From Bacteroidota bacterium (GTDB lineage: Bacteria > Bacteroidota > Ignavibacteria > UBA10030): 64,000 nucleotides of DNA. Of this stretch, positions 33,011-57,328 are shown one piece after another. Made by a program: the position numbers and the translations under genes. Location: assembly GCA_050013655.1 (NCBI GenBank), contig JBEKEV010000004.1, positions 88,407-152,406 on the forward strand. Reading direction: 5' to 3'. How positions within the stretch are numbered: position 1 is the stretch's first letter; each line of letters begins with the position of its first letter. Below the pieces are notes generated by a model. That model had not been told where the DNA came from. It made no database searches and worked only from the letters and a program-made list of their open reading frames with translations.

Positions 33011-34954
33011 TTAATATACTCGTACGATATTACCGCCTGCTTCAATCGCCTTCCGAAGAACACGGTCTGTATTCTCCAGCAAATCAACGTCGGATGCTTC
33101 ATCGATTGCACCGGCAACACCCACGCTGATCGTTACAGAAAAACTTTTATTGTCGATATTAAGGATATTGCTGGCAACATTCTTACGGATCTTTTCTGCC
33201 CATAACGATGCTTCATTGGACGTCGTATTCACAAGAAGGATGACAAAACAATTAAAATCAAATCTACCGACGACATCGTAGGGACGAATGGAAACCTTCA
33301 CCATGCGGCCGACATTCTGCAGTATGAAATCAAAGGCTTCCCTGCCATAACGTGCAATATGATCATCCATCCGGTCGATGGAAATCATTACTAAGGACAA
33401 ATCATTCGAAAAATCACTTGCACGCTGCACTTCTTCATGCAAACGGCCCATAAAACTCTTACGCGTCAAGACACCTGTTGTTTCATCAAGCGAAACGTAA
33501 TTGTTCATGACTTCCGTGAGGCTCAGAATTTCCAATGCCCACGATGAAGTCTCGGCAAGCTTCTGCACCAGCTTCACATCAGCATCAGAATATGTTTTTA
33601 GATCCTTACTTTCTATAAGCAAGGCGCCATAGCACCGATTCAATGAATTCAGCGGTATGATAACCAACGCGCCCTTCGATTCACATCGTTCAGCTTGATA
33701 AAACCGCGGCACTGTAGTGGTGGACAGATCATCAATGATCTTGGGAACACCAGTCTGTATGACTCCTATGACCAAACTCTGTTGAGGATCCAGTTCACTC
33801 ATGAGTGGAACATACGGATCGTTCATCCGGTTGAGGAGATTATGCACAATCCAAGATTTTCTGCTGTCGTCAAATAAAACAATTGCAATATAATCCCATG
33901 GAACCAGTCTCGATGTCTCCTCGGCAAGCGATCGCGTGATGGAATGAGCGCCAAAGTCAATACTCAACTGTTCGCGCACCCGACTAATCGATCGGAGTAC
34001 TTCAGAATCCAACAGGAGATCGTACTTGGATGTATAGCTTCGAATGAGCGTCGAAATCAGTTTTGCAACCTGTGCCAGTGAAGCGATCGTTTCGTTTCCA
34101 TAGGCATCCGCTTCTAAACAATCCAAGGCAAGAACTGCCACCGGATCCTGCGATTGAATTCCGCTAAAAAATATCGGCACGCCCACAAATGTTTTTACTA
34201 CATCTGTTGTCTCGTAATATGGCACCATATCATCTTGACCAAGAGCATCCACAAAATTGACGATCTGTGGTTTCCCATTCAATGCAATTTGACTGACGAC
34301 ATCAGAACCGATTGGCAACCGTCTGTTTGTCATGAATTTTTCGCTATCGGTCACATACCCTTCGAGCACCAATTGTTGTTTCTCTCTATTCATCCAAAAA
34401 AGAGCAACTGTATGGGCAAATTGAGCATCCTTCACGACACTCAACACCCGTTGAATCAGCGTATTGAATTCGGCTCTCGGACTTTCCTCGGCATTTTCTC
34501 CGATGCCGGGAATTTCGATAAACTCATTTAATTCAAACACTGTTGTAGTTGTTTTTTCTGAATCCTTTTTTTCCAACGCTATATTGTCTTGCTCATGGTA
34601 CATCGGTTGTGAATGTTCCGGCTCGTCAACATAATCAACTTGGTATTGCTTGCCGGTAACTTGAAAATCATCAAAAACGAGTTTCTTCATCCGAATATTG
34701 GACTCCTCTGATGTGAGAGAATGACGATCCTCATCTGCTGCTTGGATAAAAAATCCTCTGCGTTTCCCCACTCGTACAATCACATAAGCGATCAATGCTG
34801 CAGAAAACAATAAGAGCACTGCCTTCACGAATGTAGCTGAAAGGACAAGTCCCCATAAAAATGAAACGACGCCCACCACTACAATCAATTCCTCTGCAAA
34901 CGTTAACGAATGCATCCAGGAAAAGAATGTGTTGAACCTTCGGGCGTCAGTCAT
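33011..34954 (-). CDS. Membrane-anchored GAF and GGDEF-domain protein with degenerate active-site motifs
   Basis: N-terminal TM helices, GAF-like middle domains, and a C-terminal GGDEF fold. The signature reads GRFDFNCF instead of RxGGDEF, and GREAFD instead of GHxxGD. Confidence 0.7.
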   Translation of the reverse strand: MTDARRFNTFFSWMHSLTFAEELIVVVGVVSFLWGLVLSATFVKAVLLLFSAALIAYVIVRVGKRRGFFIQAADEDRHSLTSEESNIRMKKLVFDDFQVTGKQYQVDYVDEPEHSQPMYHEQDNIALEKKDSEKTTTTVFELNEFIEIPGIGENAEESPRAEFNTLIQRVLSVVKDAQFAHTVALFWMNREKQQLVLEGYVTDSEKFMTNRRLPIGSDVVSQIALNGKPQIVNFVDALGQDDMVPYYETTDVVKTFVGVPIFFSGIQSQDPVAVLALDCLEADAYGNETIASLAQVAKLISTLIRSYTSKYDLLLDSEVLRSISRVREQLSIDFGAHSITRSLAEETSRLVPWDYIAIVLFDDSRKSWIVHNLLNRMNDPYVPLMSELDPQQSLVIGVIQTGVPKIIDDLSTTTVPRFYQAERCESKGALVIIPLNSLNRCYGALLIESKDLKTYSDADVKLVQKLAETSSWALEILSLTEVMNNYVSLDETTGVLTRKSFMGRLHEEVQRASDFSNDLSLVMISIDRMDDHIARYGREAFDFILQNVGRMVKVSIRPYDVVGRFDFNCFVILLVNTTSNEASLWAEKIRKNVASNILNIDNKSFSVTISVGVAGAIDEASDVDLLENTDRVLRKAIEAGGNIVRVY

Positions 34955-35168: not shown

Positions 35169-37706
35169 TTGGAAGCGCCCATGAAAGCTGTTATCATGGC
35201 TGGTGGATTTGGCACACGTTTGCGACCTCTCACCAGCAACATTCCAAAACCGATGGTTCCAATGGTCAATAAGCCTATTATGGAACACATTGTTGAACTG
35301 CTCAAAACGCACAACATAAAAGATATCGTCTCCACGCTCTTCTATCAGCCGGATGCCATCACAGGCTATTTCGGAGATGGAAGCGCCTTCGGCATCAACA
35401 TGCAATATCGCAAAGCAGAAGCGGATTACGGAACAGCGGGAAGTGTCCGTAATGCGAAAGATTTTTTAAACGAGCGTTTTTTAGTTATCAGTGGAGATGT
35501 TCTTACCGATTTTGATTTGACAGCCGCTCTTCGCTTCCATGAAGAGAAGAAAGCAAAAGCCACATTGCTGCTCACACGAGTTTCCAATCCGCTCCAGTTC
35601 GGAGTTGTCTTAACAAAAGAAGATGGGAAAATTGCACGTTTTCTTGAAAAACCATCGTGGGGAGAAGTGTTTAGCGACACGATCAACACAGGAATTTATA
35701 TTATAGAGCCTGAGGTGTTGGATTTTATACCTGAAAAACAAGAATTTGACTTTAGTAAGAATCTCTTCCCCATTCTCTTGAAACGTGACCTTGGCATCTA
35801 TGGCTATATCGCAAAAGGATACTGGAAAGATATTGGCAGTCTAAACGATTACCAGGACGCACACATGGATGCGCTTCGTGGTGATGTAAAATTACACATT
35901 GAGGGAACGAAGAAGGAAAATCTCACCCTTGGTGAAGGTACAACCGTTGAGACTGACCCGCGTCATCTTACAGGAACAAGTATCATTGGAAAGAACTGCC
36001 GGATACACAATGGAGCAGTTATCAGTAATTCTGTTATCAGCGACGATTGCGAAATTTTCCCCGGGGGTATCATTCGCAATTCAGTCATCTGGAAGAAATC
36101 GAAAATTGGCGCTCGTTCTGAATTATCGCTCGACGTCATCGGAGCCGGATGCACCATCAGTGACGATGTCGTCATCCTCGAAAATGTATTCATCGGTGAT
36201 TCGTGTATTATTGGAAAACGGAGCAAACTACTCTCCAATATTAAAATATGGCCGGATAAAAGCATTGAAGACGGTTCTATCGTTACACGTAGTTTGATAT
36301 GGGAAGATAGATGGTTGCGAGAACTTTTCACCGACGCCCGCGTCACCGGTCTTTCCAATATAGAAATCAGTCCTGAATTTGGCGCGAAATTGGGAGCTGC
36401 GTTTGGTGCACTCGTAGGAGCCGGAGCAACGGTCGTTACCAGCCGAGATTCAGACAATGTCTCCAGAATGATCAATCGCGCAATTATGTCCGGTCTCATG
36501 TCCGCTGGAGTTCATTGCACCGATCTACGCACAACATCGATTCCCATTGTCCGGCACGAATTACAAACCGGAAAAGAACGCGGCGGCATCCACGTTCGCA
36601 AATCCCCGTTCGACAGAAATAGTTCCGATATCATTTTTTTCGATTCACAAGGTAAAGACCTGCCTTCGAGCAAGACAAAATCCATGGAACGGCTGTTCTT
36701 CGGTGAAGACTTCAACCGCGCCCATCCAGATCAAGTCGGCTCGATCTCATTCCCGGAACGGACAACGGAAAGCTACATTCAGCGATTCTTGAAAACACTC
36801 AATACCGATGTTATTCAATCTGCAGGTCTGAAGTTGGTGATTGACTATTCGAACGGAATCGCTTCCACCATCTTCCCGAACATTCTTGGAAATATGAACG
36901 TTCAAGTGGTTGCTCTCAACGCATATCTCGACAGCCGAAAAATTACTCGAACAAAAGAAGAGTTTGACGAATCATTGCGTCAACTGGCATATGTTGTCAC
37001 TTCACTGAAATATGATGTCGGTTGTATGCTCGATGCTGGGGCAGAAAAGATCTTTATCGTCAATGAGCAAGGAAATATTATCGATAATGACCGTTTGTTA
37101 ACGCTGATGGTAAAATTCTTAGTGCTCGCCAAAAACGATATTACCAAGTTTGCCGTTCCCATTTCTGCAAGCGGGGAGATTGATCTCTTAGCAAAAGATT
37201 TTAATTTGGAAGTCGTTAAAACACGCGACAGCCACCTTGCACTGATGGATGCCGCAACCGACAAGCAGATCAAGTTCGTCGGCGGAACGAAGGGCGGATT
37301 TATCTTCAACGAATTCCTCTTTGCTTCCGATGGAATGTATTCTATTTCCAAATTGCTTGAATGCATCGCGATAACGAAAAAACGAATCGGTCAACTCGAC
37401 AAAGAGACACCGCGACTCTATTTCGTCAAGAAAAATATCTCGTGCCCGTGGCACACGAAGGGACGCATCATGCGTAAGCTTACAGAGCAGTCGGAACGAA
37501 TCCCTCGCGATCTGATCGAAGGGATCAAGCTCTATCCATCCGATCTCTGCGCGTACACATCAATCTTGTTGAGTCCCGATCGCGCACGGCCGATGTTTCA
37601 TATTAACGCAGAATCCAGCGATGTGGTCGTAGCTGAGCGTCTTGCGAACGAATATGAGACCCTTATTCAACAGTGGATAGAAGGTGGGCAGCGGGAAGAA
37701 TTGTAA
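35169..37706 (+). CDS. Bifunctional-type protein: sugar-1-phosphate nucleotidyltransferase with left-handed beta-helix, fused to a phosphohexomutase (PGM/PMM)-like domain
   Basis: N-terminal MKAVIMAGGFGTRLRPLT (GGxGTRL) followed by hexapeptide repeats. The C-terminal 450 aa align with the alpha-D-phosphohexomutase fold, but the motifs read VRKSPFD (TASHNP), DAGAEK (DGDGDR) and GGTKGG (GEESG). Confidence 0.7.
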   Translation: MEAPMKAVIMAGGFGTRLRPLTSNIPKPMVPMVNKPIMEHIVELLKTHNIKDIVSTLFYQPDAITGYFGDGSAFGINMQYRKAEADYGTAGSVRNAKDFLNERFLVISGDVLTDFDLTAALRFHEEKKAKATLLLTRVSNPLQFGVVLTKEDGKIARFLEKPSWGEVFSDTINTGIYIIEPEVLDFIPEKQEFDFSKNLFPILLKRDLGIYGYIAKGYWKDIGSLNDYQDAHMDALRGDVKLHIEGTKKENLTLGEGTTVETDPRHLTGTSIIGKNCRIHNGAVISNSVISDDCEIFPGGIIRNSVIWKKSKIGARSELSLDVIGAGCTISDDVVILENVFIGDSCIIGKRSKLLSNIKIWPDKSIEDGSIVTRSLIWEDRWLRELFTDARVTGLSNIEISPEFGAKLGAAFGALVGAGATVVTSRDSDNVSRMINRAIMSGLMSAGVHCTDLRTTSIPIVRHELQTGKERGGIHVRKSPFDRNSSDIIFFDSQGKDLPSSKTKSMERLFFGEDFNRAHPDQVGSISFPERTTESYIQRFLKTLNTDVIQSAGLKLVIDYSNGIASTIFPNILGNMNVQVVALNAYLDSRKITRTKEEFDESLRQLAYVVTSLKYDVGCMLDAGAEKIFIVNEQGNIIDNDRLLTLMVKFLVLAKNDITKFAVPISASGEIDLLAKDFNLEVVKTRDSHLALMDAATDKQIKFVGGTKGGFIFNEFLFASDGMYSISKLLECIAITKKRIGQLDKETPRLYFVKKNISCPWHTKGRIMRKLTEQSERIPRDLIEGIKLYPSDLCAYTSILLSPDRARPMFHINAESSDVVVAERLANEYETLIQQWIEGGQREEL

Positions 37707-37811
37707 TTTCATTTGTATTTTGATAGAAATTCTGCAATCTTTGATGGTTCACTTCAAGTCGGAGGTGAACCTCTGCATTCCTTATGCGACTCTGGTAACT
37801 TGGAGACTTGA

Positions 37812-38282
37812 ATGAAAATTACTGACATATTAAATGAATCGGTTGTGCGAACGAATCTTCCCGGCGCGACAAAGGAAGAAGTGATTAATGCGATGATCGA
37901 ACTTGCCGGCACTCAGAAACAAGTTGCCGACAAAGAGCGCATGCGTACAGCGATTTTTGATCGAGAAAAAATAATGTCCACCGGAGTCGGATCGGGGTTT
38001 GCTATCCCGCACGGCAAAACGGACGCAGTGAACGACATCGTTGCAGCATTTGCGGTCACTGCACAGGCTATTGATTATCAATCATTGGATGATCAACCGG
38101 TACGGCTGATATTTCTCCTTGTGGGGCGTGATAATATGGTCGGCCCACACATCAAGCTCCTGAGTCGTATTTCTCGTCTGATGAACAAAGAAGATTTTCG
38201 GAAGCAACTCCTCGAAGCAGAAACACCTAAAGACATCCTCGAGATCTTTCGACAGGAAGAAGCTGACATTACAGAGGGATAG
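37812..38282 (+). CDS. ptsN: PTS EIIA(Ntr)-type nitrogen regulatory protein
   Basis: PTS_EIIA_2 fold with the phosphorylatable His in GSGFAIPHGK. Confidence 0.75.
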   Translation: MKITDILNESVVRTNLPGATKEEVINAMIELAGTQKQVADKERMRTAIFDREKIMSTGVGSGFAIPHGKTDAVNDIVAAFAVTAQAIDYQSLDDQPVRLIFLLVGRDNMVGPHIKLLSRISRLMNKEDFRKQLLEAETPKDILEIFRQEEADITEG

Positions 38283-38333
38283 CTTCACCGACGTGTACAT
38301 ACTTCATATCAATACCCTGCTCATTAAAAATCG

Positions 38334-39608
38334 TTGACATTGCAGGAAGGGCTGCACATTTTGAAATTCCGTACGATAAAAGGCACAAAAGATATTCTAC
38401 CCGATGAAATCGCCGGCTGGCAGCACGTTGAATCGGTTGTCCGCCGCGTGATGCACGACTTCAACTACCGGGAAATCCGCACTCCTGCATTCGAACAAAC
38501 AGGTTTGTTCGCTCGCAGCATCGGTGAACTCACGGATATTGTCAGTAAGGAAATGTACACCTTTCTCGACCGAAGCGAAGAAAGTCTCACTCTCCGCCCG
38601 GAAGGTACCGCGGCGACACTACGCGCGTATATTCAAAATAATCTTGGCGAGCAATCACCACTGACCAAAGTGTATTACATCGGGCCGATGTTTCGACAGG
38701 AACGCCCCCAAGCCGGACGATTGCGGCAATTTCATCAATTCGGTGCGGAAGCACTTGGCGCATCGTCGCCGCTGCTGGATGTCGAAACGATGGTCTTGCC
38801 GCTGGAAATCTACAAACAGCTTGGCATTGATCGCTTTGCGCTCAAGATCAATTCTGTAGGATGTGAGAAGTGTCGCCCGGCATACAAGCAGCTTCTGCAA
38901 ACAGAGCTGCGCAAAGTATTCTCCCAGCTTTCCCCGGACAGTCAGGCACGGGTCGAACAAAACCCGCTTCGTGTCCTCGACTCCAAAAATGAAAAAGACC
39001 GCGAGCTAACGAACAACATGCCGCTCATGAGCGAACATTTCTGTGAAAAATGCGCTTTACACTTTGCATCGGTTCGGTCGCTCCTCGAAGCACTTTCTAT
39101 TGCATATGAAGTGGATGGACGGCTCGTCCGCGGACTAGATTATTATACAAAGACTGCTTTTGAAATCACGAGCACTGCGCTTGGTTCGCAAGACGCTCTT
39201 GCAGGCGGTGGCAGATATGATTTGCTTATTGAAGAGCTTGGCGGTAAATCAACACCGGGAGTTGGATTCGCTGCAGGGATCGAACGACTCTTGATGGTGC
39301 TCTCCAAACTCGGGAAAAGTAAACAAACGCGAGCTACTCCGATTCTTTACTTCATTGGATTAGATGAGCCGGCTCGTATATGGGCATTTCTGAAAGCGAA
39401 TGAGTTGCGCCGGCAGGATATCTGCGCCGAGGTGGACTATCTTGGACGAAGTGTTAAATCCCAAATGAGAGAAGCGAATCGCCAACAGGCGCACTATGTA
39501 ATTGTAGTAGGTGAGCAAGAGTTGAAGACCAAAGCTGCCAAATTGAAAAATATGCGCACCGGTGAAGAAACTTCCATTTCACTCGATGACATCAAGATTC
39601 CCTCCTGA
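38334..39608 (+). CDS. hisS: Histidine--tRNA ligase
   Basis: Class II aaRS motifs (FRQERPQAGRLRQFHQ, GGGRYD) and an anticodon-binding domain. Confidence 0.9.
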   Translation: MTLQEGLHILKFRTIKGTKDILPDEIAGWQHVESVVRRVMHDFNYREIRTPAFEQTGLFARSIGELTDIVSKEMYTFLDRSEESLTLRPEGTAATLRAYIQNNLGEQSPLTKVYYIGPMFRQERPQAGRLRQFHQFGAEALGASSPLLDVETMVLPLEIYKQLGIDRFALKINSVGCEKCRPAYKQLLQTELRKVFSQLSPDSQARVEQNPLRVLDSKNEKDRELTNNMPLMSEHFCEKCALHFASVRSLLEALSIAYEVDGRLVRGLDYYTKTAFEITSTALGSQDALAGGGRYDLLIEELGGKSTPGVGFAAGIERLLMVLSKLGKSKQTRATPILYFIGLDEPARIWAFLKANELRRQDICAEVDYLGRSVKSQMREANRQQAHYVIVVGEQELKTKAAKLKNMRTGEETSISLDDIKIPS

Positions 39609-56746: not shown

Positions 56747-57239
56747 GAAGCTGGTGCGTCAGGCAGTCGCCCTATTCTGGTTATATAGAATAGGGAGGAA
56801 AGTCCGAACACCACAAGGCAAGGCGCCTCGCGTGTACGCTTAGGGCGTAGAAAGCGAGGGTCCCGCAGGCAACATCCTGCAGGAACGGAGAGTATCACAG
56901 AAAACGCACATCCCGATTTCTTCGATAAGAAGAAGCCGAGAAAAGGTGAAAAGGTGGTGTAAGAGACCACCGCATCGTCAGTAATGACGATGGTCGCGTG
57001 AGCGATCCCATCTCGATCTATGGATTGAGATGGAACAAGAGAAACCCCGCTTGGTGCAAGACCGTGTAGATCCCGTTTCCGATTTAGCGAAAGCTAAGTC
57101 GGGATAGAGTTGCCCGCTCCAGTTCACACACGTGAAGACGGGATGGGTAGGTCGCCAAGAGAAATGGCTGCCTCGTTTCGTCGGTTGCTTCGGCAGTTAA
57201 CGGAATTAGACAGAATTCGGCTTATCGACTAACCACTTC
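56747..57239 (+). ncRNA. rnpB: RNase P RNA (bacterial type A), rnpB
   Basis: GGAGGAAAGTCCGAACACC (P4 5' strand), AAGGTGAAAAGGTGGTGTAAGAGACCACC, and ACAGAATTCGGCTTATCG (P4 3' strand). A compensatory UCCGAA/UUCGG change relative to E. coli CCGG/CCGG supports the call. Ends pair as P1 GAAGCTGGT/ACCACTTC, and the region has no coherent ORF. Confidence 0.9.
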
Positions 57240-57328
57240 ATGCTTCTGGATGTATTGACATGCTTGCATCCGACCATACGCATCCACCTTCTTACTATAA
57301 TCTTCAATCATTGTACTGAAGGATACTG

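Follow-up and report, generated by a model that had tools for sequence, protein, structure and literature searches.

The locus described here raises the question of whether a phosphohexomutase that has been joined to a sugar nucleotidyltransferase is still an enzyme and, if it is not, what it has been retained for. The gene in question is located on the forward strand at positions 35181–37706 (stop codon included) of a stretch of 64,000 nucleotides (nt), hereafter the window, from a Bacteroidota bacterium of the lineage Ignavibacteria, UBA10030 (contig JBEKEV010000004.1), and it encodes a fusion protein of 841 amino acids (aa). We regard it as reasonably probable that this protein is an active nucleoside diphosphate (NDP)-hexose pyrophosphorylase, acting most likely on glucose-1-phosphate, with a C-terminal pseudo-phosphohexomutase module that binds a ligand or a partner. 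A first-pass annotation, made from the letters of the window and a list of its open reading frames (ORFs), had already suspected that the catalytic motifs of the C-terminal half are degenerate.

Gene and Domain Architecture

The mechanically predicted ORF is present in the window at 35169–37706 (+) and opens at a TTG codon at 35169, thus giving a product of 845 aa. The 120 closest homologs are mostly 835–841 aa long and begin with MKAVIMAGG, so that the ATG at 35181, which is the start used by these homologs, is probably the true one. Residue numbers refer to the 845-aa version, as in the first-pass annotation, unless otherwise stated.

Pfam assigns NTP_transferase to residues 6–236 (185 bits), a left-handed beta-helix (LbH) to residues 266–336, and PGM_PMM_I, PGM_PMM_II, and PGM_PMM_III to residues 392–516, 534–635, and 640–747, respectively, all above their gathering scores. 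In the DNA, mutase-like domains I, II, and III occupy positions 36342–36716, 36768–37073, and 37086–37409 (+). Domain IV follows at 37416–37661 (+); PGM_PMM_IV (PF00408) has no match in the fusion protein, and the domain is recognized by its fold and by TIGR03990. This archaeal-type mutase model spans residues 386–831, that is, model positions 3–442 of 444, with a score of 216.7 bits against an equivalog cut-off of 439.

The AlphaFold2 model, built from 101 sequences, has a mean predicted local distance difference test (pLDDT) score of 89.7 and a predicted template modeling (pTM) score of 0.75. In Foldseek, the C-terminal half superposes on the mutase structures 1wqa, 9du5, and 2f7l over approximately 460 columns with template modeling (TM) scores of 0.87–0.90 (0.88–0.90 for 1wqa and 9du5, both archaeal phosphoglucomutase/phosphomannomutase [PGM/PMM] structures) and 24–27% identity. 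Based on the end-to-end alignment with TIGR03990 and on this superposition, the half has the complete fold of the alpha-D-phosphohexomutase superfamily, with four alpha/beta domains, domain IV included, and a central cleft. The assignment of this fold to the C-terminal ~450 aa in the first-pass annotation is thus shared by Pfam (domains I–III), TIGR03990, and the structural comparison.

Loss of the Canonical Active-Site Loops

Canonical phosphohexomutases carry four conserved loops, that is, TASHNP (Ser loop), DGDxDR (metal loop), GEExGG or GEQSGH (sugar-binding loop), and RxSGTEP (phosphate loop). These are directly visible in the reference chains, as well as in the stand-alone mutases that neighbor the fusion in other genomes. 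The C-terminal half aligns with archaeal mutases from end to end in HMMER (E = 1e-42 to 1e-37), and the positions of the loops agree in five HMMER pairwise alignments (with 9du5, 1wqa, 2f7l, 9ix8, and 9g69) and in a MAFFT alignment.

All four loops are noncanonical in the window protein. The Ser loop VRKSPFD (36594–36614, +), which is placed opposite ITASHNP, keeps Ser479 but has Pro, Phe, and Asp in the positions of His, Asn, and Pro. In the former metal loop, DAGAEK (37032–37049, +) stands opposite DGDADR; the first Asp (Asp1) is kept, the second (Asp2) is replaced by Gly, the third (Asp3) by Glu, by which a carboxylate stays in place, and the Arg by Lys. The former sugar-binding loop reads GGTKGG (37281–37298, +) opposite GEENGG or GEQSGH, and the former phosphate loop SPDRARP (37572–37592, +) opposite RKSGTEP in the alignment with 2f7l. 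Domain I has also exchanged two basic residues that canonical mutases conserve, namely the Arg of FGTxGxRG, which is Thr393 in the segment FTDARVTG (36327–36350, +), and the Lys of NGxK, which is Ile489. In domain IV, a motif CPWHTKGRIMR (37443–37475, +) is found which is absent from 1wqa, the sole canonical mutase compared.

The first-pass annotation had pointed to VRKSPFD, DAGAEK, and GGTKGG as the counterparts of TASHNP, DGDGDR, and GEESGH, and the alignment with characterized mutases places all three where it had put them. Its count of two lost metal-binding Asp residues has to be corrected, as only the second is fully lost and the third is a Glu, whereas the phosphate loop SPDRARP, Thr393, and Ile489 are losses beyond those it had listed. 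It had named a shifted mapping, with the canonical residues located in another part of the sequence, as what would speak against its view; this is ruled out, because a regular-expression scan of the whole protein returned no SHNP-like, DxDxD(R), GE[EQ]/GExSG, or SGTEP motif. Judged from its motifs, the mutase half lacks the residues required for phosphoserine- and Mg-dependent phosphoryl transfer, since the Ser, metal, sugar-binding, and phosphate-binding loops all depart from those of a competent mutase, and we infer that its mutase activity has been lost.

Distribution of the Altered Motifs in the Fusion Family

A search with the C-terminal half against 1.84 billion cluster representatives returned mostly fusions of 800–850 aa, with identities down to 26%. 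This collinear architecture is common to the 120 close homologs (66–95% identity) and to 72 divergent full-length representatives (C-terminal half 26–56% identical), and by its architecture the window protein belongs to this family of NTP-transferase, LbH, and mutase-like fusions, which is of the type catalogued in KEGG as K16881. SHNP is found in none of the 72 representatives and DGDADR in a single one, which itself lacks the Ser; both motifs are absent from all 83 metagenomic fusion ORFs. At the canonical positions, the representatives have Ser in 61% (44/72), Asp1 in 60%, Asp2 in 14%, and Glu instead of Asp3 in 79% of the cases, and the x-Ser of the phosphate loop is replaced by Pro-Asp in 74–90% of them. 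The close homologs, 120 in number, show hardly any variation in the altered motifs HVRKSP, LDxGAEK, GGTKGGFIF, and NPDRxRP. This comparison with other 800–850-aa fusions, which had been suggested along with the initial prediction, shows that the motifs have been lost throughout the fusion family and not by a local accident. It also strengthens the earlier suspicion that the mutase half is not a conventional catalyst.

The members of the family belong to NC10, Deltaproteobacteria, Margulisbacteria, Saganbacteria, Kryptonia, Ignavibacteriota, Actinobacteriota (Aquicultor and Gaiellaceae), Eremiobacterota, Chloroflexota, and Armatimonadota, and a cyanobacterial member is found in the cultured thermophile Parathermosynechococcus lividus PCC 6715 (P0429, 841 aa). 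In databases, they are labeled either "mannose-1-phosphate guanylyltransferase/phosphomannomutase" or "sugar phosphate nucleotidyltransferase," and many homologs are given as ManC/ManB bifunctional (K16881) by JGI. As far as the mutase part is concerned, this bifunctional annotation is unsupported, and the fusion family, which is large and widely distributed, is probably misannotated.

The respective loop of the P. lividus protein reads VRAHPDR, in which the Ser is gone as well, and this species offers a tractable host for genetics on the fusion family. Synechocystis sll1496 was set aside as a candidate cyanobacterial member, since the paper on it gives a size of 643 aa and no sequence. In the case of the fusion of Candidatus Aquicultor (P0148), its 90%-identity cluster also lists canonical mutases of 471–476 aa (P0387 and P0388), which carry TASHNP, DGDADR, GEESGG, and SGTEP and obviously fall short of 90% identity with the fusion; the mixed cluster is probably the product of read-through gene calls spanning adjacent genes.

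Selective Constraint on the Mutase-Like Half

Purifying selection on the mutase-like half is as strong as on the transferase half. In the mutase-like half, the ratio of nonsynonymous to synonymous substitution rates (dN/dS, Nei–Gojobori method) against two orthologs was 0.069 and 0.063, compared with 0.079 and 0.052 in the transferase-LbH half; three more distant orthologs (L005–L007) were left out on account of saturated synonymous sites and indels. A decaying relic domain is ruled out by these low values.

Conservation was further examined by the entropy of 52 positions in six segments, that is, the four former loops and the Arg- and Lys-bearing segments of domain I, in a subfamily alignment of 101 sequences (43–95% identity). 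The altered loops had a mean entropy of 0.92, compared with 1.55 for the rest of the C-terminal half and 1.03 for the N-terminal catalytic domain, and none of 10,000 random position sets was as conserved. This difference shrinks to 2.25 vs. 2.46 (P = 0.057) in the family as a whole. The conserved cleft positions of the subfamily include the basic residues R477, K478, K627, K764, and R769 beside the kept Ser479, Asp622, and Glu626; R477, P480, G624, and E626 show little or no variation. Additionally, the domain IV motif in the form CPWxxKGxxMR is nearly invariant in the family; it is absent from 1wqa, the only canonical mutase with which it was compared. At least in the subfamily of the window protein, the cleft looks remodeled and constrained rather than abandoned. 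Due to the purifying selection and the conserved altered loops, a repurposed binding site, that is, a sensor or docking surface, would fit better than a relic.

The Nucleotidyltransferase Half

The sugar-1-phosphate nucleotidyltransferase catalytic domain (PF00483; 35184–35876, +) scores 185 bits against a cut-off of 21.2 bits and is followed by the LbH (hexapeptide) domain of the GMPPB/GlgC/eIF2B type (35964–36272, +). All the catalytic motifs that were checked, namely the GGxGTRLxPLT loop, the Lys of PKP, the Asp of SGD, EKP, and the Asp of KDIG, are present and near-invariant among homologs. In detail, the nucleotidyltransferase signature AGGFGTRLRPLT is found at 35199–35234, together with GTAG, SGD, EKP, and KDIG; of 121 close homologs, nearly all keep GGxGTRLRPLT, GTAG, SGD, EKP, and K/RDxG, and the GGxGxRxxPxT loop is near-universal in the 72 divergent representatives. 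The simplest reading is that the N-terminal half, with every feature of an active enzyme, is an NDP-hexose pyrophosphorylase. This agrees with the initial description of the N-terminal ~380 aa as an active-looking nucleotidyltransferase with an LbH.

The best solved relative of this half is 8x7s (tlr0611; 37% identity), which is listed as a UTP-glucose-1-phosphate uridylyltransferase, and in Foldseek the half also superposes on GDP-mannose pyrophosphorylases at 28–30% identity. Among the specific models, the cut-off for mannose-1-phosphate guanylyltransferase (NF052502, 440 bits) was not reached by the full protein (273.7 bits) or by the N-terminal half alone (278.1 bits), and the same applies to the GlgC models TIGR02091 (132 vs. 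425 bits) and NF003670 (139.6 vs. 470 bits) and to RmlA-long (155 vs. 320 bits). The substrate is probably glucose-1-phosphate and the product NDP-glucose, in view of the closest solved relative and of the glycogen operons and GlgC-like neighbors of other members of the family.

Genomic Context in Other Lineages

Using five-sequence alignments, 80 metagenomic loci were found and ranked by similarity to the fusion protein of one locus (L085), and 83 diverse fusion loci were available in all, 71 of them with enough downstream sequence. In 27 of the 71, the next gene on the same strand is a canonical stand-alone PGM/PMM with TASHNP, DGDADR, GEES, and SGTEP. The fusions linked to a mutase form four clusters at 50% identity, with pairwise identities down to 42%. 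A typical example is L085 itself, where a stand-alone four-domain mutase with FTASHNP, DGDADR, GGEESAG, and ESGTEP, whose best model is TIGR03990, is located 3 nt downstream of the fusion. The frequent presence of a genuine mutase gene immediately downstream suggests that the fused copy does not supply the mutase activity.

Glycogen genes constitute the second type of neighbors. In 11 of the 71 loci, the fusion is directly followed by glycogen synthase, and a GH57 branching enzyme is located directly upstream in 8 of the 83, these fusions forming one clade. In contigs of the Margulisbacteria/Saganbacteria type, the fusion is placed between the GH57 branching enzyme and the GT5 glycogen synthase, often with overlapping start and stop codons and with more alpha-glucan genes upstream. 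Two of these clusters (L084, 1–4575; L088, 1–6004) also hold GalT-like (galactose-1-phosphate uridylyltransferase family) and DUF4912 genes, to which L088 adds a radical-SAM gene; with the GH57 amylase/transferase genes, they compose an unusual alpha-glucan operon set. Another locus (L086, 3403–10873) has two tandem GlgC/GlgD-like genes directly upstream of the fusion and, after it, a gene for a 682-aa PP2C-type protein phosphatase. Since the pseudo-mutase keeps its Ser, it may be regulated by phosphorylation.

The gene of histidyl-tRNA synthetase (HisRS) is linked to the fusion across lineages, in the order fusion, canonical mutase, zero to three genes, and HisRS (L115, L125, L134, L135, L137, L139, L140, and L142).

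Function of the Pseudo-Mutase Module

The preferred reading of the fusion is that the C-terminal half kept the four-domain fold while its catalytic residues were lost and its cleft was remodeled and then conserved in the new form. In outline, this supports the first-pass annotation, which had suggested a sugar-phosphate sensor or a scaffold for the transferase; the module may be either of these or something else. Most likely, the module would bind an anionic metabolite or a partner protein. The partner might be the genuine mutase, whose product, the sugar-1-phosphate substrate, could then be handed over to the transferase. Another candidate is a phospho-metabolite acting as an allosteric ligand, after the paradigms of GlgC and GMPPA/GMPPB. 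Such binding by the pseudo-mutase would tune or feed the N-terminal transferase; the nature of the ligand or partner, as well as its coupling to the transferase, is what we infer here. A more specific version of this proposal is tentative: the pseudo-mutase might serve as a phospho-metabolite receptor and/or a phosphoglucomutase dock, forming a unit from glucose-6-phosphate through glucose-1-phosphate to NDP-glucose that would control glycogen synthesis where the fusion stands in the position of GlgC.

Several observations weigh against the preferred reading. The loss of mutase function is read from the sequence itself, and the subfamily of the window protein hardly varies at the Ser, the first Asp, and the Glu in place of the third metal Asp, so that the cleft may still carry out some metal- or phosphoserine-dependent chemistry. 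The N-terminal half reaches no NCBIfam equivalog cut-off, which makes its sugar and nucleotide specificity an indirect assignment. The proportion of loci with an adjacent mutase, 27/71 (38%), is not an unbiased frequency for the family, because the 80 metagenomic loci were ranked by their resemblance to the fusion protein of L085, a locus that itself includes an adjacent mutase. The link to glycogen comes from a single clade, and neither a glycogen gene nor a canonical mutase was found by tblastn in the window or beside the gene in Ignavibacteriota.

Three other explanations have to be considered. The mutase-like half could be purely architectural, a scaffold for oligomerization or stability without a ligand or regulatory role, in which the cleft would be irrelevant. 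This is unlikely, albeit compatible with a number of results: in the whole family, the loops are just marginally more conserved than the rest (entropy 2.25 vs. 2.46), domain I is the best-conserved mutase-like domain (38% pairwise identity vs. 25–28%) and corresponds to the dimer interface in GlmM, as is generally known, and the pTM of the model (0.75) suggests a defined overall architecture. Within the subfamily, however, the loops are the most conserved part of the half and exceed even the average of the N-terminal catalytic domain (0.92 vs. 1.55 in the rest of the half and 1.03 in the N-terminal domain), and there is no obvious need for a pure scaffold to hold R477, P480, G624, and E626 near-invariant. 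Less probable still is that the remodeled cleft performs another chemistry, such as phosphatase action, phosphotransfer, or conversion of another phospho-sugar, through Ser479, Asp622, Glu626, and the Arg/Lys residues. The near-invariance of these positions in the subfamily would agree with such a role, as would the conserved CPWxxKGxxMR of domain IV, which is missing from the one canonical mutase compared (1wqa). On the contrary, the same positions vary outside the subfamily (Ser 61%, Asp1 60%, Asp2 14%), which is unusual for a catalytic site, and we know of no precedent.

The explanation that matches the database name, a truly bifunctional mannose-1-phosphate guanylyltransferase and phosphomannomutase (K16881) whose mutase half shifts the phosphate from position 6 to position 1 and hands the product over, is the most improbable of all. 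The fold is complete, Pfam domains I–III exceed their gathering thresholds, and the nucleophile Ser is kept in the window protein and in 44 of the 72 representatives. Furthermore, many homologs are so labeled by JGI, and SCO1388 of Streptomyces coelicolor was taken to be apparently bifunctional from its domain content (PMC5982138). Nevertheless, the His, Asn, Pro, Asp2, the Arg and Lys of domain I, the Glu residues of the sugar loop, and the whole phosphate loop have been replaced, the TIGR03990 score is about half of its cut-off (217 vs. 439 bits), and the Ser itself is missing in 39% of the representatives, including the cultured cyanobacterium. The frequent adjacency of a canonical mutase also opposes a bifunctional enzyme, as does the SCO1388 mutant, which has no GDP-mannose phenotype (PMC5982138).

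Should the mutase half be inert, metabolic reconstructions would err in assigning a mutase to these genomes on the strength of the fusion gene. If the module is a sensor or a docking surface, entry into sugar-nucleotide or glycogen synthesis would be regulated in a way unlike the classical GlgC paradigm, and bacteria would offer a clear example of a pseudoenzyme domain made from an upstream enzyme of the same pathway; such control of sugar-nucleotide supply by a dead copy of that enzyme would be previously undescribed.

Comparison with Known Systems

The archaeal-type phosphohexomutases (Pyrococcus horikoshii 1wqa, Thermococcus kodakarensis 9du5, and Sulfolobus tokodaii 2f7l) and GlmM share the four-domain fold of the C-terminal half, and the archaeal-type subgroup also comprises the stand-alone mutases that neighbor the fusion elsewhere, as tested with the one of L085. 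The fusion differs from all these enzymes in its four loops and two basic residues, in the nucleotidyltransferase placed in front, and in the lack of a Pfam domain IV. Respectively, the N-terminal half has the Rossmann-like domain, the LbH, and the motifs of pyrophosphorylases of the CugP/ManC/GMPPB type (tlr0611, 8x7s; VTC1, 7x8j; GMPPB, 7d72), which are devoid of its mutase-like extension of 470 residues.

The mutase fold without catalysis is known from PGM5 (aciculin), a noncatalytic member of the superfamily and a cytoskeletal protein of eukaryotes, and its use in protein binding from GlmM bound to the c-di-AMP cyclase CdaA (7olh, which is among the Foldseek matches). GlmM is still an active enzyme, and neither GlmM nor PGM5 is fused to a transferase, unlike the window protein. 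As a model for the proposed regulation, an inert relative of a pathway enzyme that associates with the active pyrophosphorylase as a metabolite sensor is found in GMPPA/GMPPB, in GlgD/GlgC, and in the large subunit of plant ADP-glucose pyrophosphorylase. For instance, GMPPA is a noncatalytic paralogue that binds GDP-mannose and regulates GMPPB (PMC11228364). In all three, the inert partner is a relative of the transferase itself and a polypeptide of its own, whereas in the fusion it goes back to the mutase, the preceding enzyme of the pathway, and is covalently attached, and its regulatory role is our proposal.

SCO1388 has the same domain architecture and database name as the window protein, a likeness drawn from architecture and not from a comparison of motifs. 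According to its authors, it "appears to be a bifunctional enzyme"; its transposon mutant showed no GDP-mannose-related phenotype and added none when combined with other manC candidates, and SCO1388 was judged a minor contributor to GDP-mannose pyrophosphorylase activity (PMC5982138).

In a literature search, outside which most subscription journals lay, nothing was found on the biochemistry of the fusion, on its lost catalytic motifs, or on a noncatalytic role. A review of prokaryotic alpha-glucan enzymes does not mention CugP, a "phosphoglucomutase domain," or a pseudoenzyme, and its two matches to "fused" refer to other proteins. In the NCBI Conserved Domain Database, "MPG1 transferase" proteins of this type are also assigned to a PGM-like subfamily.

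Genomic Context in Ignavibacteriota

A metagenome-assembled chromosome of 3.64 Mb from Ignavibacteriota (OY969585.1) represents the closest genome, with 95% amino-acid identity and the same gene order. The counts that follow refer to the 80 best genome loci, all from metagenome-assembled genomes of Ignavibacteriota or "Bacteroidota." Directly downstream of the fusion, a gene of the phosphotransferase system EIIA type (PtsN/FruA-IIA-like; 37812–38282, +) is located, which is above the cut-off of the FruA-IIA domain and below that of PtsN; it is given here as context and not as a demonstrated member of the system. It is the next gene in 73 of the 80 loci, with a gap of 19–150 nt in most, and is followed by HisRS, a small ORF, Lgt, and a SpoU methylase. 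A general functional link between the fusion and EIIA is rejected, as the pairing occurs in only 1 of 87 loci of other lineages; a regulatory link within Ignavibacteriota is conceivable. When the HisRS-linked gene orders are compared between lineages, the Ignavibacteriota order of fusion, EIIA, and HisRS (35181–39608 in the window) places EIIA in the slot of the canonical mutase.

On the other side of the fusion, a GAF-GGDEF (diguanylate cyclase-type) gene (33011–34954, −) is divergently oriented and shares an intergenic region of 226 nt with it; such a gene is divergently upstream in 56 of the 80 loci. An Rfam scan of the window found no riboswitch or other known RNA near the fusion. Its sole match is a distant bacterial RNase P RNA of class A at 56751–57240 (+), full length and with a score of 165 bits.

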